Source of the DNA: Escherichia phage JM10
DNA length: 64,000 nucleotides
Sequence record: PP400777
Direction: 5' to 3' (one strand)
Position 1 is the stretch's first letter. Every line of letters starts with the position of its first letter. The notes beneath the pieces are model-generated. The model was not told where the DNA came from. It ran no database searches and saw nothing but the letters and a program-made list of their open reading frames with translations. The translations under genes were made by a program, and so were the position numbers. Shown piece by piece: positions 3,775-40,197 of this stretch.

Positions 3775-4790
3775 TGTGTCGCCTCAATATAAAGTTCGTT
3801 GGAATATTTGACCAGCGCTTCTCTGTCTTCGTCTGAGATATCTGGAATCGCGTCAATATATTCTTTAATGATATCTTGAAGTGATTTAATCTCGATTTCC
3901 TGGTCGTCATCAGATTCAACACTGTTATCAACTTTAGAAACCATACGAAGAGAGTGAACTACTTTTTCAAGTTCAGATTCAAACTTAGTCAACTCTGAAT
4001 CAATTTCTGATACTATAACACGTACGGCTAGATTAGTATAATCAGAATAATTGATTTTGCCTTTAAATGGATAAGTGATTCGTCGATGCCATGTTGTTTC
4101 ATTAGGAATAAATTCCATACGTTCAACATCAGTGTCAAATACCCAGAATCCGCGAGGGTCGTTCTCATCACCTGCAGTAAGGGTCCATGGTGTCCCAATA
4201 TATTTGACGTTAGCCGCTTCAGAGATTGTGTGGAAGTGGCCGGACCAGACTTGTTTATAGGTCTTTAAGAAATCAGGTTCAAGCCCGTGAGACTTCATCC
4301 CTTTATAGAAATAAAAGCCATTCAGTTCCCAATGACCAACACAATACGCGGCAGAAGAAGTCTTGATGTGCTCTAAGATTTCACCTGTATTTTCTTCGCA
4401 CATCCATGGAACGATATCAATCAGACATCCGTCAAAATCTACAGTAGTCGGATGCTCGTAAATAGTAAAGTTTTCAAATTGAGTTAACAATTCAGAAACA
4501 GTGTTAGGTGTTATTGTATTCTTAAACGCCATGTCATGGTTTCCTATCGTGACATGAACGTGAATGCCTGCTTTAGAAATCATATCAACGATTTCACGAT
4601 TGAATTCCATTGTACGATGTGTTATTGCTTTACGGACGTCAAACCAATCACCGTACTGAATCCAAGTTTTAATCCCGTGTTTCTTAGAGTATTCAATTGC
4701 TTGACGAATACCGTCACGTTGAATATCTTGAACCCATGGGTCGTCTTGTTTGACTCCGATATGGAAGTCGCCTAAGTGCAAAATTTTCAT
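3771..4790 (-). CDS. 47: recombination endonuclease subunit gp47 (Mre11/SbcD-like phosphoesterase)
   Basis: 339 aa; calcineurin-like motifs LHLGDFH and GNHD. Confidence 0.9.
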   Translation of the reverse strand: MKILHLGDFHIGVKQDDPWVQDIQRDGIRQAIEYSKKHGIKTWIQYGDWFDVRKAITHRTMEFNREIVDMISKAGIHVHVTIGNHDMAFKNTITPNTVSELLTQFENFTIYEHPTTVDFDGCLIDIVPWMCEENTGEILEHIKTSSAAYCVGHWELNGFYFYKGMKSHGLEPDFLKTYKQVWSGHFHTISEAANVKYIGTPWTLTAGDENDPRGFWVFDTDVERMEFIPNETTWHRRITYPFKGKINYSDYTNLAVRVIVSEIDSELTKFESELEKVVHSLRMVSKVDNSVESDDDQEIEIKSLQDIIKEYIDAIPDISDEDREALVKYSNELYIEATQ

Positions 4791-4834
4791 ATTATTTCCT
4801 CATTAGTTAATTCATTCTATCATCCGTTTATAAA

Positions 4835-4860
4835 GCAAAAAAGGAACTCCGAAGAGTTCC
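4835..4860 (-). terminator. rho-independent terminator candidate
   Basis: Minus strand GGAACTC-TTCG-GAGTTCC hairpin followed by TTTTTTGC; sits upstream of gene 47. Confidence 0.55.
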
Positions 4861-5072
4861 TATCCACATAGTACACCGTACAAAGGCTCATTTGAACTTT
4901 TAAATCGAATGGGCTTGTATGTAATAGTTCCTTCGGCTTTAGCTTTATCGTAAGACTCTTTAAAACGTCTCATTCTTTCTGCTTTGCCTTTACGGATTTT
5001 ATCGAAATTTTCAGAGGTCAGGTCGTTCGTCATGCATAATCATCTCTCAGAAAATACCTAAACCGATTTCTC

Positions 5073-5294
5073 TCATCGTTTCCACCATTTCTTAACTTGA
5101 AATGAATCAACCCACACGAGTTGTTTTGGGTCAGCCTTTACAATAGGCGGACAAATTTCTGTAATAGAACCGTCGTGATATTCCTTTTCAGAGATTTTAA
5201 CACAAAGAGGACCTCCCAATTTAAGGGTGAACCCTGCGTTCAGCTTCAGACGTTTAAACTTTGTTTGAACTAGCGCCATTAATGATGTCCTCAA
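5073..5294 (-). CDS. hypothetical protein
   Basis: 73-aa ORF in the 47-55 interval; true start may be the internal Met at 5279. Confidence 0.35.
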   Translation of the reverse strand: MRTSLMALVQTKFKRLKLNAGFTLKLGGPLCVKISEKEYHDGSITEICPPIVKADPKQLVWVDSFQVKKWWKR

Positions 5295-5577
5295 TAGCCT
5301 GACGTGTAGTAACCCACTGGATTTTAATTAACTTGTCATTATATGGTTGTCGTAGAATATCCCGAGATTTCTTAATAGCATATTCGTAAGCTTCGAAGTT
5401 GTTTTTAATTGCTGCTTCTTGAGCATGAGCATAAAGACGGTTTAGTTCAAAACGATTCTTTTTAAGAATCTTTTCGGATTTTTTACGTGCTTCAGCTTCA
5501 TTTTTCTTTTGGATTTCTTGTAGCATTTTAGCTACTGCATCTTCTGCTTCTTTATTTTCAATAATCTCGGTAGTCAT
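5254..5577 (-). CDS. hypothetical protein (47.1 position), Lys/Glu-rich
   Basis: 107-aa ORF; no recognisable motif. Confidence 0.5.
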   Translation of the reverse strand: MTTEIIENKEAEDAVAKMLQEIQKKNEAEARKKSEKILKKNRFELNRLYAHAQEAAIKNNFEAYEYAIKKSRDILRQPYNDKLIKIQWVTTRQAIEDIINGASSNKV

Positions 5578-5578
5578 A

Positions 5579-5794
5579 TTATCTCATTAAATTAAAATAA
5601 AAACGTCCATCCTCTTCAATACAGAACTCATACTCAACCGGAGTCCCATTTATCGAAAATGACACGTCATGTGGGTTCAAAGGGTCGATGTCAAAATTAA
5701 TTTTAAATTCACGACCCAACAATTTTACCAAATAAGGGATTGCTTCGTCAAAAGGTTCTTCTAAGTAGTTAGAGATGTCAATTGTCATCCTCAT
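5579..5794 (-). CDS. hypothetical small protein
   Basis: ORF-track ORF 5579..5872 overlaps the gene 55 3' end; trimmed to the internal ATG at 5794. No clear RBS. Confidence 0.3.
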
Positions 5795-27177: not shown

Positions 27178-27480
27178 TTATTTACCTTTAATTACTTTAG
27201 CTGCTTCGATAGCCGCTTGCTGAAGGTCATCCATAGACATACCGAATTTAGAAGCAAAGTTATCAATTTTCTTTTCGACAGCATTCAAAGGCTTTGCCTG
27301 TTTACCTTCATTAGCGCCAGGAAGAGCGAGAATACGCTCTTTGTCAATATAAAGGCTTACAAGTTTCTTACGGTCTTTATCGGACAAATCATGAAATGAA
27401 TGGGCCTTTTTATTTATAGCGGCTTCTAATTTACCTGCACTCACTCGCGCTTCAGTAATAAATTCTTGATAGGTTTTCAT
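27178..27480 (-). CDS. ipII: prohead internal protein II-like (capsid targeting sequence)
   Basis: 100 aa starting MKTYQEFITEA; colinear with my recollection of T4 IPII. Confidence 0.7.
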   Translation of the reverse strand: MKTYQEFITEARVSAGKLEAAINKKAHSFHDLSDKDRKKLVSLYIDKERILALPGANEGKQAKPLNAVEKKIDNFASKFGMSMDDLQQAAIEAAKVIKGK

Positions 27481-27507
27481 GTGTTTCCTTGTTTGTTTTG
27501 ATAGAGT

Positions 27508-27538
27508 AATTATACCATATTAATACTTAAGCGTAAAC
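27508..27538 (-). promoter_or_regulatory. early promoter candidate (GTTTAC -35, TATAAT -10)
   Basis: Minus strand GTTTAC-17 nt-GTATAAT, then AGGAAA RBS and the ipII ATG. Confidence 0.5.
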
Positions 27539-27618
27539 CGTTTAAGCTTTACCGCCAGAAATAATTCCGAAGTTGTTAAAATCATATCCAATATCGTCAA
27601 CATCTACTTTAGGACTTG

Positions 27619-27804
27619 CTACAACATAAGCAATTTCACTACGTTTTGCATAGGTGTTTTGATTTCTTTACCATCGCCACCTAAGAAAGAATACCCATTA
27701 CGTTTTAATGAGCCAAAGTCTTCCGCATCACCAATGAAAGCTTTAACTTTAAATTTAGGACCTTTGGCATCTGCTTCAACGATAAATTCTTGATACATTT
27801 TCAT
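27619..27804 (-). pseudogene. internal protein-like ORF with CTS, apparently truncated or frameshifted
   Basis: 61 aa starting MKMYQEFIVEA; an alternative frame continues to 27542, suggesting a frameshift near 27640-27670. Confidence 0.35.
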
Positions 27805-27917
27805 TTTTCCTTAGTAAATTGATTTACCAAAGTATTTGTACCAAGTCGGGCGTTGAGCAATTTTTTATCTAAGCGTGCTTGACTTATCGCAATGGACGCT
27901 TCGGACGGGTCATAATT

Positions 27918-27970
27918 TCCTCCAAGTAGTTGATGAATGTATAGTATCAAAACCCTTGGAGGAAGTAAAC
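27918..27970 (-). promoter_or_regulatory. PeSL-like early promoter with 9-bp inverted repeat flanking -10
   Basis: Minus strand GTTTAC-tTCCTCCAAGggttttg-ATACTAT-…CTTGGAGGAaatt ATG. Confidence 0.45.
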
Positions 27971-27971
27971 A

Positions 27972-28253
27972 CTATTTTTCTGAAGCGCCTGAAATATATT
28001 TTTCAAGACGTTGTTTCATCAGCGAGCCGTTCTTAGCAATTTCTTCCGGTTTATCGCACATACGCAACAAGGCTTCAAGCTTAACGATATCACTGGTGCG
28101 CTCAAATTTGCGAGTATCTATCTTACTAGCAAGTTCAGAAATACGTGCTAATAGACTTTCAGCTTCAACCAAAGCTGCACCTAGCTTAGTTGCAAATGTG
28201 TCAGTAGCTTCGTTAAGAATAGATTCTGATAAAAATTCACTATATGTTTTCAT
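27972..28253 (-). CDS. internal protein-like (CTS-bearing)
   Basis: [10 protein letters not shown]… from the ATG overlapping the e stop (ATGA); the ORF-track start five codons upstream is inside e. Confidence 0.55.
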
Positions 28254-35912: not shown

Positions 35913-35929
35913 AATATTTTCCTCTGTGG

Positions 35930-35969
35930 TTGATAAGTCTATAATATCATGTCCTTAGAAGAAGTAAAC
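35930..35969 (-). promoter_or_regulatory. PeSL-like early promoter cassette
   Basis: Minus strand GTTTAC-17-ATATTATAGACTTATCAA. Confidence 0.4.
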
Positions 35970-36002
35970 AACTTTATGAAATATTTTTATGCCCTAGATA
36001 CC

Positions 36003-36029
36003 AAAAAGCCCCAACCATAAGGAAGGGGC
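36003..36029 (-). terminator. rho-independent terminator
   Basis: Minus strand GCCCCTTCCTTATGGTTGGGGC followed by TTTTT. Confidence 0.55.
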
Positions 36030-36035
36030 ATTCTA

Positions 36036-36500
36036 TTATTTAATTTGTTTAGCAGACCAGATACGGTCTTTAATAAGTTTTTGGATATCTTCAACATACT
36101 CAAGGCTATGAGCGTGAGGATTATCTTTGAAGCTATGTGCTCGTGCCAGTTTCTGGCCTTCTGTTTTGATTACTAAAAGCTCTTTAAGAATTGCTTCATA
36201 CTTAGAAATAATTCCTTTGGCGATATTTTTTTCTTGAGCTGCTTTAGGGTCTGCTTTTGGCGCAGGTGCTTTACCTGTAGCTTTCTGGAACAATTCACCT
36301 GATGCAGCTAGGCTTTTAAAAACTCGGCTAACAGTATTAGCATTAGTAAAACCTTCGGCTTTAAAATCTCTAATAAAACGGAAACGTTCTTCATCAGAGG
36401 CGTCTTTGTAAGAATATTTACCTGCTTGAATTGCTGCAATCGCAGCGGCTTTTACATCTGAACTAGATTGTTCAGTCAAAAATTCAGCGTATGATTTCAT
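36036..36500 (-). CDS. internal protein-like (CTS-bearing), 154 aa
   Basis: Starts MKSYAEFLTEQ (CTS-like); AGGAAAAG RBS; an AATAAATAG late-promoter-like element lies upstream. Confidence 0.55.
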   Translation of the reverse strand: MKSYAEFLTEQSSSDVKAAAIAAIQAGKYSYKDASDEERFRFIRDFKAEGFTNANTVSRVFKSLAASGELFQKATGKAPAPKADPKAAQEKNIAKGIISKYEAILKELLVIKTEGQKLARAHSFKDNPHAHSLEYVEDIQKLIKDRIWSAKQIK

Positions 36501-36545
36501 GTTGCTTTTCCTAAGTTAATTAACTTATCTATTTATTATTATGCC

Positions 36546-36572
36546 AAAAAGCCCCAACCTTTCGGAAGGGGC
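36546..36572 (-). terminator. rho-independent terminator downstream of the tRNA/stable-RNA cluster
   Basis: Same hairpin as 21930-21951, followed by TTTTT on the minus strand. Confidence 0.6.
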
Positions 36573-36614
36573 TATATACCTTGTCGGGGTTCCACCTGCT
36601 AAGGCAAGTGTTTG

Positions 36615-36707
36615 TACGAAACGCCGGGATTCGAACCCGGTTATTAAGCAGTTGACGCTACTCAATATTTTTAAAAGGCCATATCTCGACCATATCCGAA
36701 CGTTCCG
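36615..36707 (-). ncRNA. tRNA-like element / candidate stable RNA
   Basis: Canonical T-arm CCGGG-TTCGAAT-CCCGG and 7-bp acceptor pairing (CGGAACG/CGTTTCG), but 93 nt long and no clean D or anticodon arm could be folded by eye. Confidence 0.3.
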
Positions 36708-36880
36708 TCAAAAACGCTACTCGGCTTACGGCAAAGATATTTCCTCGAATCGATAATTCGGTGCGCCGTTTCTGCTGTGATGTAAGGGGATATTAACAAA
36801 TCATAAAGATTTATTAAGACCAGTCCTTACTCAGGGAACATCAGTCCGACGACTTACCGGTAGCGACCCGGCTTCTTATT

Positions 36881-36957
36881 TGGTCGAGGCAGAAGGATTC
36901 TAACCTTCAACCTACGGATTAGAAATCCGTTGCTCTATACAATTGAGCTATGCCTCG
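36881..36957 (-). tRNA. tRNA-Arg (anticodon UCU)
   Basis: Cloverleaf read by eye: acceptor CGAGGCA/TGCCTCG, D stem GCTC/GAGC, anticodon loop TTTCTAA, T arm GAAGG-TTAGAAT-CCTTC, CCA encoded. Confidence 0.8.
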
Positions 36958-36963
36958 AATATA

Positions 36964-37037
36964 TGACCCAGACCAGATTCGAACTGGTAACCTTTCCCTT
37001 ATGAGGGGACTGCTGCTAACCATTGAGCTACAGGGCC
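36964..37037 (-). tRNA. tRNA-Ile2/Met-like (anticodon CAU)
   Basis: Acceptor GGCCCTG/CTGGGTC, anticodon loop CTCATAA, T arm ACCAG-TTCGAAT-CTGGT; the D stem is imperfect as read. Confidence 0.6.
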
Positions 37038-37158
37038 TAAATAACTTTCTATTATGAAAGGCACTTTAGAGTACCTTTGGTAATAGAGGGTATGAATTAA
37101 TAATAACACATAATTCTTAAAGCAAATCAATCATTTTAACAGTTGGCAAAACGATTTC

Positions 37159-37443
37159 TCACCATATTTTGTATGTGTTCTGAATGCAATCAAGTCCTAA
37201 AGGATTCTTGAAAATATCATATTCAAGAGGGCCTTTTTCTGTTTCAATAAAGAAATCAAAGTTCACTGTATTAAATTTACGGTCTTCCCATAGTAATTTG
37301 ACCTGTGAAGACGAACGGTCGATATAAACCTTTTCAACCTCAAAGTTAGTCAGAATACCGTAGTCATTAACTAGTGCTTTAGCTGCACGTTGATCGCTTT
37401 CGTATCCATTCTCAACGGATTTTACCTTAGCGTAAAGAATCAT
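37159..37443 (-). CDS. hypothetical protein
   Basis: 94-aa ORF. Confidence 0.5.
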   Translation of the reverse strand: MILYAKVKSVENGYESDQRAAKALVNDYGILTNFEVEKVYIDRSSSQVKLLWEDRKFNTVNFDFFIETEKGPLEYDIFKNPLGLDCIQNTYKIW

Positions 37444-37802
37444 GAATGTTCCACCATTTCAAAGGTATGAGCATCAACAATATGATACCAGTCAAAATTT
37501 TCTTCTGCGTTTTTATAAATTTCGCGAAGAGCCTCAACAGTTTTTCCTGTAGCAACAAGGTCGTCAATACCGCCAAGAGGATAACAGTCATAACCAGCAA
37601 ACAGAAGGAAATTAATAGTTTCTGTAGGTTCTGGATGCAGAACACCGTTATCGTCTACCACTTCAAAGAAAGTGTAAGAAGGAGTACAAGTTTTAATCCA
37701 AGCCCATGCTTGAGCCGCTGAATCAAATGGTCTGCGTATCAAACGACAATCAGGGTCTTTAGAAGGATTTGCTTCAAAATCCGCATATACGTGATATTTC
37801 AT
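37440..37802 (-). CDS. hypothetical protein
   Basis: 120 aa from MKYHVYADFE…; GGTGA RBS. Confidence 0.5.
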   Translation of the reverse strand: MKYHVYADFEANPSKDPDCRLIRRPFDSAAQAWAWIKTCTPSYTFFEVVDDNGVLHPEPTETINFLLFAGYDCYPLGGIDDLVATGKTVEALREIYKNAEENFDWYHIVDAHTFEMVEHS

Positions 37803-37803
37803 T

Positions 37804-38010
37804 TTACTCACCTTTTGCAATTTTATCCATAACGATAGCGATTAAGCCGATTAGAAATGCTACTACCAACGAGATAGAGTTTTCAGTTGTTGTCAGTAGT
37901 CCACAAATGAATCCTACAAACATCGAAAAACTAAAAGCCATTGAAGCAATTACTACAGCAACATTACGAATCAGTTCAGCGCGTTTCATTTTATTTCTCC
38001 ATTTACTCAT
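37804..38010 (-). CDS. small membrane protein
   Basis: 68 aa with two hydrophobic helices. Confidence 0.45.
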   Translation of the reverse strand: MSKWRNKMKRAELIRNVAVVIASMAFSFSMFVGFICGLLTTTENSISLVVAFLIGLIAIVMDKIAKGE

Positions 38011-38015
38011 TTGTT

Positions 38016-38058
38016 TTGATAGGACTACTATAACATAGCCCTATAGGCTTGTATACCT
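38016..38058 (-). promoter_or_regulatory. PeSL-like early promoter + stem-loop cassette
   Basis: Minus strand GTATAC-…-TTATAGTAGTCCTATCAA. Confidence 0.4.
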
Positions 38059-38322
38059 TTATTTCAAATATATTGCGTATTTTTTATAGCCACCAGGCTC
38101 GTGTCGAAGACCTTTATCATTCGCAAAACGTTGAATGTTATTGAACTGATTTTCATCAAGTTCGGATGTGTCAAATATGAAAAAGTTTCGTTTGTTACCA
38201 AGCGTGATATGCGGAGTTAAGTCAATGTTATACAAATTAAGAATATCAGCAATAACCTGATTGACCGCTTTGTTAATTTTCACACCAGACGATTCTGAGA
38301 TGAATTCGTTGAAAGTTTTCAT
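38059..38322 (-). CDS. internal protein-like (CTS-bearing)
   Basis: CTS-like MKTFNEFISES begins at the fifth codon of the ORF-track ORF; no clear SD at either ATG. Confidence 0.5.
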   Translation of the reverse strand: MKTFNEFISESSGVKINKAVNQVIADILNLYNIDLTPHITLGNKRNFFIFDTSELDENQFNNIQRFANDKGLRHEPGGYKKYAIYLK

Positions 38323-38342
38323 TTTAGGTTCCATTTGGTTGT

Positions 38343-38386
38343 TTTGATAGGACTACTATAACATAGTCCTACCATGATGTAAACTA
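38343..38386 (-). promoter_or_regulatory. PeSL-like early promoter + stem-loop cassette
   Basis: Minus strand GTTTAC-17-TTATAGT with inverted repeat GGTAGGACTA/TAGTCCTACC; near-identical to the 21424-21466 copy. Confidence 0.45.
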
Positions 38387-38695
38387 TTTTATGCCTTTAG
38401 ATGAAATAGTATTCTGGCGTTTGACCCCAGTTTGTGAAAAATCATGGTTATCAATTTGGTCAACTCGCATAACACCAAATGCGGATTTAATTTTGGCTTT
38501 TGAACCTTTTTTGATACTAATTATCATATAAGTATCATTTTTCTTATATTCGAAATTTGTTACTTCAACGCCTTGATTAGAAATTGACTTAATAATAGCA
38601 TTAGCGTATTCATCATCTAACGGACCGGTGGTGTTAATAATAAAATTTTTATCGGCTTTAGTAGCTTCAGCGATAAACTCTTGATAGGTTTTCAT
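38384..38695 (-). CDS. internal protein I-like (CTS-bearing)
   Basis: 103 aa starting MKTYQEFIAEA; sits upstream of 57B as T4 ipI does. Confidence 0.6.
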   Translation of the reverse strand: MKTYQEFIAEATKADKNFIINTTGPLDDEYANAIIKSISNQGVEVTNFEYKKNDTYMIISIKKGSKAKIKSAFGVMRVDQIDNHDFSQTGVKRQNTISSKGIK

Positions 38696-38718
38696 TTTAT
38701 TTCCTTGAGGTTGTTTAT

Positions 38719-38760
38719 TTGATAGGATGATAGTAACACACCATCATCCTTATGTAAACT
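38719..38760 (-). promoter_or_regulatory. PeSL-like early promoter + stem-loop cassette
   Basis: Minus strand GTTTAC-17-TTACTAT with inverted repeat GGATGAT/ATCATCC, then AGGAAA RBS. Confidence 0.45.
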
Positions 38761-38772
38761 GTTTTGTGAAAA

Positions 38773-39458
<686 letters not shown>

Positions 39459-39462
39459 TTTA

Positions 39463-40197
39463 TTACCTTAAGATTGTTTCAATTTTAGAATAAAGCTCTT
39501 CTAAAGAGCCGTCGTTTGTAATAACTAAATCGCCTTCTTCAATAGGCAACCCAGCTTCTGTAATATGTTTATCAGTGGATTCCGTACCAGAGCGAACCAC
39601 ATGAATAACTGTAGCACCCATCGCTCTAGCGGTTTCCATTTCATGGACTTGGCGTGTATCGGTTACAATATAGTAATCGAAATCACTTCCAATATAATCC
39701 ATATAGTTTAATGCAAAAAGCTTAACCCAATACATACGGTCAAATAAATTAACGACAACATCCGTACCGAGGGCTTGCATAAGACGGCGGACTGACCATG
39801 TGTCGTTGATATTATTTATAGCTTCACGCAGGACTTCATATGGTTTAATATCTAGATACGAATATCCGCCTTCTAACGATGATAATACTTTAACATTATT
39901 AATCGGTAAATATTGACTTTGCAAATAAATTAGCGCTTCTTCCAATAATTCAATAACATCCAACTTATTGAGATTTAATGGTGTTTCACGGTCATATCCA
40001 ATGCCTTCAAAGTATTCGTATTTCAACTCTGTGAATACATCAGGATTTTCAGCATGCCTACGTCCCCAGGCTATTGCTAGAGCGTCTTTAATTGGATACG
40101 CTAATTGGTATTTTACGGATTTAAAGTTTGAATTGATGTAATCAGCAGTAGTGTCTTTACCGCTACGTTTGATGCCACTTAAAAAGATTAGCTCCAT
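39463..40197 (-). CDS. 1: deoxynucleoside monophosphate kinase gp1
   Basis: 244 aa; P-loop LSGIKRSGKDT; colinear with my recollection of T4 gp1. Confidence 0.9.
   Translation of the reverse strand: MELIFLSGIKRSGKDTTADYINSNFKSVKYQLAYPIKDALAIAWGRRHAENPDVFTELKYEYFEGIGYDRETPLNLNKLDVIELLEEALIYLQSQYLPINNVKVLSSLEGGYSYLDIKPYEVLREAINNINDTWSVRRLMQALGTDVVVNLFDRMYWVKLFALNYMDYIGSDFDYYIVTDTRQVHEMETARAMGATVIHVVRSGTESTDKHITEAGLPIEEGDLVITNDGSLEELYSKIETILR

Follow-up and report, generated by a model that had tools for sequence, protein, structure and literature searches.

The internal proteins (Ips) that T-even phages carry form a diverse set of defence proteins that have only a capsid targeting sequence (CTS) in common (Rao and Black 2010, PMC3012670). 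Recognition of this diversity behind a shared CTS is attributed to a 1994 paper, and more than 30 variants had been counted by 2007 (PMC2839356). In T4 the tag binds the internal proteins to the scaffolding core and is then cut off by the protease gp21. Each protein stays in the head in several hundred copies, which are ejected with the DNA. The inhibitor of GmrSD-CT596 is T4 IPI (Ip1). T4 Ip1, Ip2 and Ip3 each inhibit only one distinct GmrSD type IV restriction enzyme (Silas et al. 2025, PMC12373910). Ip2 inhibits GmrSD-ECOR21/BrxU, and the same authors propose that the remaining proteins of the Ip loci target further GmrSD variants (PMC12373910). We consider here a stretch of 64,000 nt from Escherichia phage JM10 (sequence record PP400777), called the window below, and six small open reading frames (ORFs) in it that begin with a tag of this kind.

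The whole window was scanned in six frames with a strict and a looser N-terminal motif, each match being the start of an ORF. Exactly six ORFs start with MK[TSM][YF]xEF[IL]xE. All of them are on the minus strand, and we refer to them as A to F in the order of their coordinates (Table 1). In 200 mononucleotide shuffles the looser motif was matched a mean of 0.005 times per shuffle, with a maximum of 1. An earlier reading of this DNA, made from its letters alone (the sequence-only reading), had listed six ORFs with a T4-type tag, and the scan returns that same set. Truncation and suppressor experiments on the CTS of T4 IPIII showed that residues 4 and 7 govern targeting and residues 8 and 10 govern processing (PMC9026906). 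In all six ORFs residue 4 is aromatic (Y or F), residue 7 is F, residue 8 is I or L and residue 10 is E. Since positions 4, 7, 8 and 10 are all kept, the six tags match the determinants mapped in T4. The predicted gp21 site, (I/L)-x-E at residues 8-10, reads ITE in A, IVE in B, LSE in C, LTE in D, ISE in E and IAE in F. Every one of the six also has a GGAA-type ribosome-binding site 5-9 nt upstream of the MK codon. Two of the ORFs have possible upstream starts (38334 and 28268), and the position of the ribosome-binding site favours the MK start for both.

Beyond the tag these proteins have little in common. Pairwise blastp limits the likeness to residues 1-12 for nearly all pairs. Weak matches past the tag link A with D, over about 40 residues, and E with F, which are 31% identical over 42 internal residues (E=5e-4). 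The DNA that encodes the tag is itself a repeat of 32-34 nt, 72-84% identical among the genes. In the AlphaFold models of D and E the tag is disordered (residues 1-10 and 1-12 respectively). With the tag removed the predicted products are 5.5-15.9 kDa. With T4 IPI, IPII and IPIII they share a 10-residue CTS, an (I/L)-x-E site, small size and mature domains that are unrelated to each other. The neighbourhoods are the same too, beside e and denV and after 57B. PHROG families named as internal head or virion proteins match A, B, C, E and F, with E-values from 7e-12 to 4.5e-55, and curated relatives (RB32, CC31, VR7, VR20 and RB15) supply the family names Ip5, Ip7 and Ip9. Copies that are identical or 93-100% identical to each of the six exist among public phage genomes. 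Their identity as internal proteins, which the sequence-only reading had asserted for all six, is thus borne out for five by PHROG families and curated names, but D is labelled as an internal protein in no sampled record.

We argue that the six are very likely the internal-protein genes of an RB69-like T-even phage, and that their tagged products would be packaged and injected and would likely be anti-nuclease. The first 10 residues would serve as the CTS and bind the protein to the scaffolding core during prohead assembly. The prohead protease gp21 would cut behind the (I/L)-x-E of residues 8-10 and release a mature protein of 5.5-16 kDa within the head. That protein would exit with the DNA at infection, which would put it inside the cell before any phage gene expression. 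By analogy with T4 Ip1-3, each mature protein would most likely bind and block one host nuclease subtype, of the GmrSD type, that attacks modified phage DNA. Each gene forms a small cassette with repeated promoter/stem-loop or terminator elements at its borders. Recombination between the repeats would be what makes the repertoire differ between close relatives. As a close Ip2 ortholog, A probably blocks BrxU-like GmrSD enzymes. For C, D, E and F the probable targets are other DNA-modification-dependent nucleases. The sequence-only reading had suggested that these genes are anti-defence effectors, and that idea agrees with the published work on the T4 Ips.

One can also picture these packaged proteins as mainly structural or DNA-condensing. 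They would then be basic counter-ions or helpers in core and prohead assembly rather than dedicated anti-defence effectors. The mature products are indeed predicted to be basic in five cases of six (pI 9.0-9.7), and D has a linker rich in lysine, alanine and proline. Head assembly is aberrant in T4 mutants that lack IPIII, or all IPs, and the packaged DNA has about 1000 IP molecules in its midst (PMC9026906, PMC3012670). However, a structural role does not explain why the mature folds are unrelated, why the genes are present or absent among close relatives, or why frameshifts are tolerated. All three T4 IPs have specific nuclease targets (PMC12373910), and the mature domain of Ip9 occurs without a tag in siphoviruses, which do not pack it. 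We find a mainly structural role very improbable.

Table 1. Positions of the tagged ORFs and of the other features discussed. Coordinates are those of the window unless a compared locus is named.
Feature	Coordinates	Strand	Description
A	27178-27480	minus	100 aa; MKTYQEFITE, then A after the predicted cut; predicted mature product 9.8 kDa, pI 9.7
B	27619-27804	minus	61 aa; MKMYQEFIVE
C	27972-28253	minus	93 aa; tag residues 8-10 are LSE, then S after the predicted cut; predicted mature product 9.2 kDa, pI 6.3
D	36036-36500	minus	154 aa; MKSYAEFLTE, then Q after the predicted cut; predicted mature product 15.9 kDa, pI 9.6
E	38059-38322	minus	87 aa; MKTFNEFISE, then S after the predicted cut; predicted mature product 8.9 kDa, pI 9.0
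F	38384-38695	minus	103 aa; MKTYQEFIAE, then A after the predicted cut; predicted mature product 10.3 kDa, pI 9.5
denV (endonuclease V) remnant	27801-27950	minus	between C and B; from blastn and protein comparison with Shf125875 denV
Downstream hairpin terminator of D	35998-36029	minus	32-nt direct repeat; GCCCCTTCCTTATGGTTGGGGCTTTTTGGTAT
Upstream hairpin terminator of D	36541-36572	minus	3' of rnaC, followed by AATAAATA
PeSL-like early promoter and stem-loop	38339-38371	minus	upstream of E; 33-nt direct-repeat family of four copies
PeSL-like copy	38011-38043		same family
PeSL-like copy	38714-38746		same family; upstream of F
PeSL-like copy	35925-35957		same family
57B	38773-39228		immediately before F in transcription order
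tRNA-Arg(TCT) and tRNA-Met(CAT)	36881-37037	minus	called by ARAGORN; Rfam tRNA, 72.6 and 54 bits
rnaD and rnaC homologs (T4 stable RNAs D and C)	36615-36879 (approximate ends)	minus	near-identical alignment to T4
Untagged Ip9-like gene JSSK01_64	1507-1725 of the compared locus		Kagunavirus
Untagged Ip9-like gene SHIN8_0081	1492-1716 of the compared locus		Seuratvirus

The lysozyme-side locus holds A, B and C. We assign A as the ipII ortholog, since it aligns to T4 IPII over 100 of 100 residues at 93% identity and matches phrog_7857 at E=4.5e-55. It has an early-type promoter (TTTACG-N17-TATAAT) 57 nt upstream, and an exact copy of the T4 late-promoter motif TATAAATA lies on the minus strand within the ipII coding sequence (27411-27418). 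By its profile match and alignments C belongs to the Ip5 family. It matches phrog_3499 at E=1.2e-46 and is 89% identical to the VR20 'ip5'. The annotation of RB32 Ip5 reads 'similar to RB69ORF127c'. The ATG of C overlaps the stop of the lysozyme gene e (ATGA, 28250-28253), which suggests that translation of Ip5 is coupled to e.

B is a different case. It is best read as a frameshift-truncated internal head protein of the RB69ORF125c type, with 61 aa in place of 86. Residues 1-50 are 96% identical to an 86-aa 'internal head protein' of Shf125875 and its relatives. A nucleotide alignment places an insertion of 2 nt (AA) near 27659-27660, which alters the last 11 residues, and the ancestral C-terminus can still be read out of frame to about 27544. 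The phrog_2667 profile matches B over residues 1-43 only. The sequence-only reading had taken the 61-aa ORF as a gene for an internal protein. The type is right, but the allele is a frameshift-truncated version of an 86-aa gene. Between C and B lies what is left of denV. About 298 bp have been lost internally (junction about 27905-27917) and one nucleotide has been deleted near 27866, leaving a remnant of 49 codons. This UV-repair gene is inactivated here. It is intact in Shf125875, mogra and Pu-Krd-SF1, and JM17 has the same deletion.

These lesions raise the question of whether the set is partly decaying and not diversifying. The segment from e to ipII would be gathering lesions, and B and perhaps others would be pseudogenes without a role. 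The frameshift in B and the two deletions in its neighbour denV fit this, as do the truncated variants of the D family that exist in other phages. However, A, C, D, E and F have kept their full length and are covered by their family profiles from end to end. Even B retains its tag plus 40 native residues. The state of B also varies among relatives: it is an intact gene of 261 nt in JM17, it is short in Pu-Krd-SF1, and FL23 matches all 61 residues. JM17 combines the denV deletion with an intact B, and Pu-Krd-SF1 combines an intact denV with a truncated B. The truncated allele is found in at least three records with differing denV states, and this implies that it persists. We therefore regard partial decay of the set as rather doubtful.

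The second classical locus, after 57B, holds E and F. E is assigned to the Ip9 family of internal proteins. It matches phrog_7673 at E=7e-49 and is about 71-75% identical to RB32 Ip9 (72% by tblastn) and RB15 Ip9 (71%; UniProt Q38376). Its AlphaFold model is an alpha/beta fold (pLDDT 81, pTM 0.71). A Foldseek search of the PDB with this model gave a best E-value of 0.02 with TM below 0.5. The sole significant match of the model in BFVD is UPI0018AFBB59, a viral protein of 535 aa (E=8e-7, TM 0.78, 28% identity over 84 columns). The Ip9 fold may perhaps also exist as a domain within a larger protein.

The mature domain of Ip9 has untagged homologs of 72-74 aa, which lie among small accessory genes of two siphoviruses (a Kagunavirus and a Seuratvirus). 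Identity to the mature domain of E is 57% for JSSK01_64 and 44% for SHIN8_0081. These untagged genes begin where the predicted mature chain of E begins. This suggests that internal proteins arise when a tag is grafted onto ordinary accessory genes.

F sits in the position of T4 ipI, just after 57B, and can be placed in the Ip7 family of internal proteins. It matches phrog_2667 at E=2e-38 and is 69% identical to CC31 ip7. The sequence-only reading held that two ORFs, one ipII-like and one ipI-like, resemble T4 proteins. This is right for A, but the ORF called ipI-like is an Ip7 with only the tag in common. We rejected F as ipI-like, as residues 1-12 are all that it shares with any T4 IP. T4 IPI matches nothing in the window (the best tblastn E-value is 4.0), so the label is positional and not based on sequence. 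Nor does tblastn find a homolog of T4 IPIII (193 aa) in the window, where there are matches of tag length only. This agrees with the earlier observation that a gene of IPIII size is missing. The relative mogra does carry an IPIII homolog, between ipII and denV. Unlike T4, then, this phage is without an IPI or IPIII homolog, and apart from A none of its mature domains is related to the T4 proteins.

By profile and by full-length alignment, C, F and E belong to the named variant families Ip5, Ip7 and Ip9 (Repoila et al. 1994), which also appear in annotations of RB15, K3, RB32, RB69, CC31 and JS98 type. They are unlike RB32 in their alleles, which are 48% (Ip5), 67% (Ip7) and 75% (Ip9) identical, and in their arrangement. 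Ip5 is beside lysozyme here and not at the ipI locus. Behind 57B come Ip7 and then Ip9, as opposed to Ip5, Ip9, Ip7 in RB32. A comparison of ip loci across relatives, which the sequence-only reading had called for, yields the family names Ip5, Ip7, Ip9, IpII and RB69ORF125c type from curated annotations, and the repertoire varies between close relatives. In Escherichia phage OLB35 an 'ip7 protein' of 77 aa is a chimera of an Ip7-like N-terminal part and the C-terminal 32 residues of Ip9. It probably came from a deletion between neighbouring ip7 and ip9 genes.

That leaves D, the one ORF of the six that is not on record as an Ip. The sequence-only reading had put three ORFs on each side. This works for A, B and C beside lysozyme and for E and F after 57B, but D is outside the classical loci. 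It matches phrog_2280 ('unknown function') from end to end at E=1.1e-53. The family has members in more than 500 genomes (T-even, Mosigvirus and Klebsiella T4-like) and conserves a helical domain at its N-terminus; D itself is present in 511 phage records. The 40 rows sampled from these give it as 'hypothetical protein' or have no annotated feature. D belongs with RB32ORF133c, AR1_137 and HY01_0126 (phrog_2280), and none of those records says internal protein. The RB32 homolog is 80% identical, lies at the same site 3' of the tRNA/rnaC cluster with the same flanking repeat, and is annotated 'hypothetical protein, flanked by 34 bp imperfect direct repeat'.

The D family keeps its tag over large distances. 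Relatives at 35-47% identity begin with MLKFNEFLAE, MLEYSEFLKE or MISFNEFV..ITE, and those in Klebsiella phages with MKFKEFLAE. Only 12 columns are invariant across the family, and two of them are M1 and F7. The C-terminal half has been replaced outright in some lineages. An exhaustive profile search with D found 11 representatives at E <= 0.001, and the full-length relatives examined all have a CTS-like N-terminus. The same search gave no tie to a characterised family. In the AlphaFold model (pLDDT 73) an Ala/Pro/Lys linker joins a helical N-domain to a C-terminal helical hairpin. A PDB sequence profile search found no similar solved structure for D, and Foldseek of its model against the PDB gave generic helical bundles only (E > 0.5). 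A relationship to IpII past the tag is suspected at most. hhalign gives it 47.5% probability over 45 columns in which the tag is included and dominant, and the match of phrog_7857 to D (E=0.008) covers residues 1-43 only.

Two copies of a G+C-rich hairpin terminator of 32 nt, 88% identical, bracket D. T4 has one copy of the hairpin at this place, set between the left flank of the window and its right flank (GGTATCTA). With its single hairpin and the same outer flanks, T4 shows this site empty. The D module, made up of promoter, ORF and second hairpin, is thus an insertion or deletion between the repeats. The promoter motif is of the late type. A motif AATAAATA, one mismatch from the T4 late promoter, is found 37 nt before the ATG. 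The same one-mismatch variant precedes the lysozyme gene e. In HY01 and Klebsiella phage M198 the D homolog is preceded, at the corresponding place, by a hairpin and a perfect TATAAATA.

We tentatively put forward D as an unrecognised internal protein, encoded at an ip site beyond the two classical ones. Late promoter, CTS-tagged ORF and terminator would together make up a cassette complete in itself, with its point of insertion in the terminator of the tRNA/rnaC operon. An alternative is that D is an ordinary late or accessory gene and not a virion protein at all. Its tag-like N-terminus would then be due to chance or to local recombination with ip genes. None of the 40 sampled rows labels D as an internal protein, and these include RB32, which was curated by hand and does name Ip5, Ip7 and Ip9. 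D is also across the tRNA/rnaC cluster from the ipI locus, and its late-promoter motif is imperfect. However, in the D family the tag pattern is kept at 35-47% identity while the C-terminal half is replaced, and the motif is found nowhere in 64 kb beyond the six tagged ORFs. The late-promoter motif is perfect upstream of the gene in relatives, and the tag is predicted to be disordered, apart from the fold. We think it unlikely that D is an ordinary gene of that sort.

The cassettes around E and F have a different anatomy. They are like the PeSL (early promoter and stem-loop) cassettes described by Arbiol et al. 2010 and Comeau et al. 2014, with repeats on either side of E and upstream of F. 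D is unlike these, since it is bracketed by a G+C-rich intrinsic terminator hairpin and has a late-type promoter motif in place of an early one. The two PeSL-like copies that bracket E are 97% identical. The 33-nt element consists of TTTACA-N17-TATAGT/TACTAT plus a stem-loop, AGGA...TCCT. The consensus from PST and T4 is TTTACW-N17-TAYWAT with a stem of AGNA-loop-TCNT (PMC4122927), and PeSL-like elements have been seen at the two ip loci (PMC2839356). In sequence, the two elements that bracket E and the one upstream of F fit this consensus. There is evidence of ongoing turnover at the ip loci in the denV lesions, in the differing states of B and denV among relatives and in the Ip7/Ip9 chimera of OLB35.

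Several points weigh against reading all six as packaged anti-nuclease proteins. Tag, family membership, cassette anatomy, indels and frameshifts are seen directly in this DNA; packaging, cleavage, injection and the targets of the six are carried over from T4 by analogy. An ortholog with a demonstrated target exists for A only. In Pfam there is no match above thresholds for any of the six, NCBIfam has no matches for the tagged ORFs, and C, D, E and F are thus without an informative match in either. A PDB sequence search with D, E and F was uninformative, as was Foldseek with D and E. The frameshifted B may be non-functional. The position of D 3' of rnaC, across the tRNA cluster and outside both classical ip loci, counts here too, and so does the imperfect motif (AATAAATA) upstream of it in the window.

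The timing of expression is a further difficulty. A, E and F are behind early-type sigma-70 promoters, and no late promoter is found within 300 nt upstream of E or F. For A, E and F, supply while heads are being assembled would need either early synthesis or read-through from distal late promoters. There is an exact TATAAATA on the minus strand inside gene 1 (39813-39820), and this could be a source of late transcripts through 57A, 57B, Ip7 and Ip9.

The targets themselves may also differ from those of T4, given a different modification of hydroxymethylcytosine (hmC). The DNA of RB69-type phages has been reported to carry arabinosyl-hmC and not glucosyl-hmC. This phage is of that lineage and, unlike T4, it is missing alpha-gt (alpha-glucosyltransferase) at the T4 position. 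The interval between gp47 and gp55 (4790-5778) has no alpha-gt, and the only ORF there encodes 107 aa of unknown function (5254-5577, phrog_951). The absence fits with a non-glucosyl modification of hmC of the RB69 type. The beta-gt position falls outside the window.

By alignment, the window comes from a Mosigvirus-type (RB69-like) T-even phage. Escherichia phage JM17 is 97-98% identical across the full length of both ip loci, and mogra, Shf125875 and other Mosigvirus are about 95-98% identical over most of both. The gene order is that of T4. The window starts with gp45, rpbA, gp46, gp47 and gp55. Further along are nudE, e, the ip genes, denV and vs.8, and then e.6, the tRNA cluster, trna.2-4, the ip genes, 57B, 57A and gene 1. 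The two variable ip loci are thus in their classical places, A, B and C beside e (27178-28253) and E and F after 57B.

The genes for tRNA-Arg(TCT) and tRNA-Met(CAT) are the only tRNA genes in the window, as opposed to eight plus the homing endonuclease segB at that locus in T4 and RB32. The rnaD and rnaC homologs are directly 3' of tRNA-Arg and 5' of the D cassette. They are near-identical to T4 apart from a short spacer between the two RNAs. Rfam finds only the two tRNAs in the window, and the rnaD/rnaC stretch matches no family. ARAGORN did not call these RNAs, despite a tRNA-like T-arm (GGTTCGAATCC).

What we describe here is correct but already known, since tagged internal proteins are a textbook feature of the T-even phages. 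It holds no new principle. It adds one more Ip inventory, made up of IpII, Ip5, Ip7, Ip9 and a damaged copy of the RB69ORF125c type, with no Ip1 or Ip3. D is a modest lead, as a widespread tag-bearing cassette at a third site that is unlabelled as an internal protein in the sampled database records. If our proposal for D is true, searches based on the tag can still enlarge the Ip catalogue. Packaging and injection of D, if they occur, would make it a new candidate for inhibiting a host defence, possibly one tuned to non-glucosylated hmC modifications. The inventory and the widespread D family, which annotation pipelines miss, are of use mainly for better annotation and for choosing candidates in anti-restriction screens. 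No phage molecule acts earlier in the infected cell than the internal proteins. They help to set which wild E. coli strains the T-even phages infect, and this makes them relevant to the choice of therapeutic phages.

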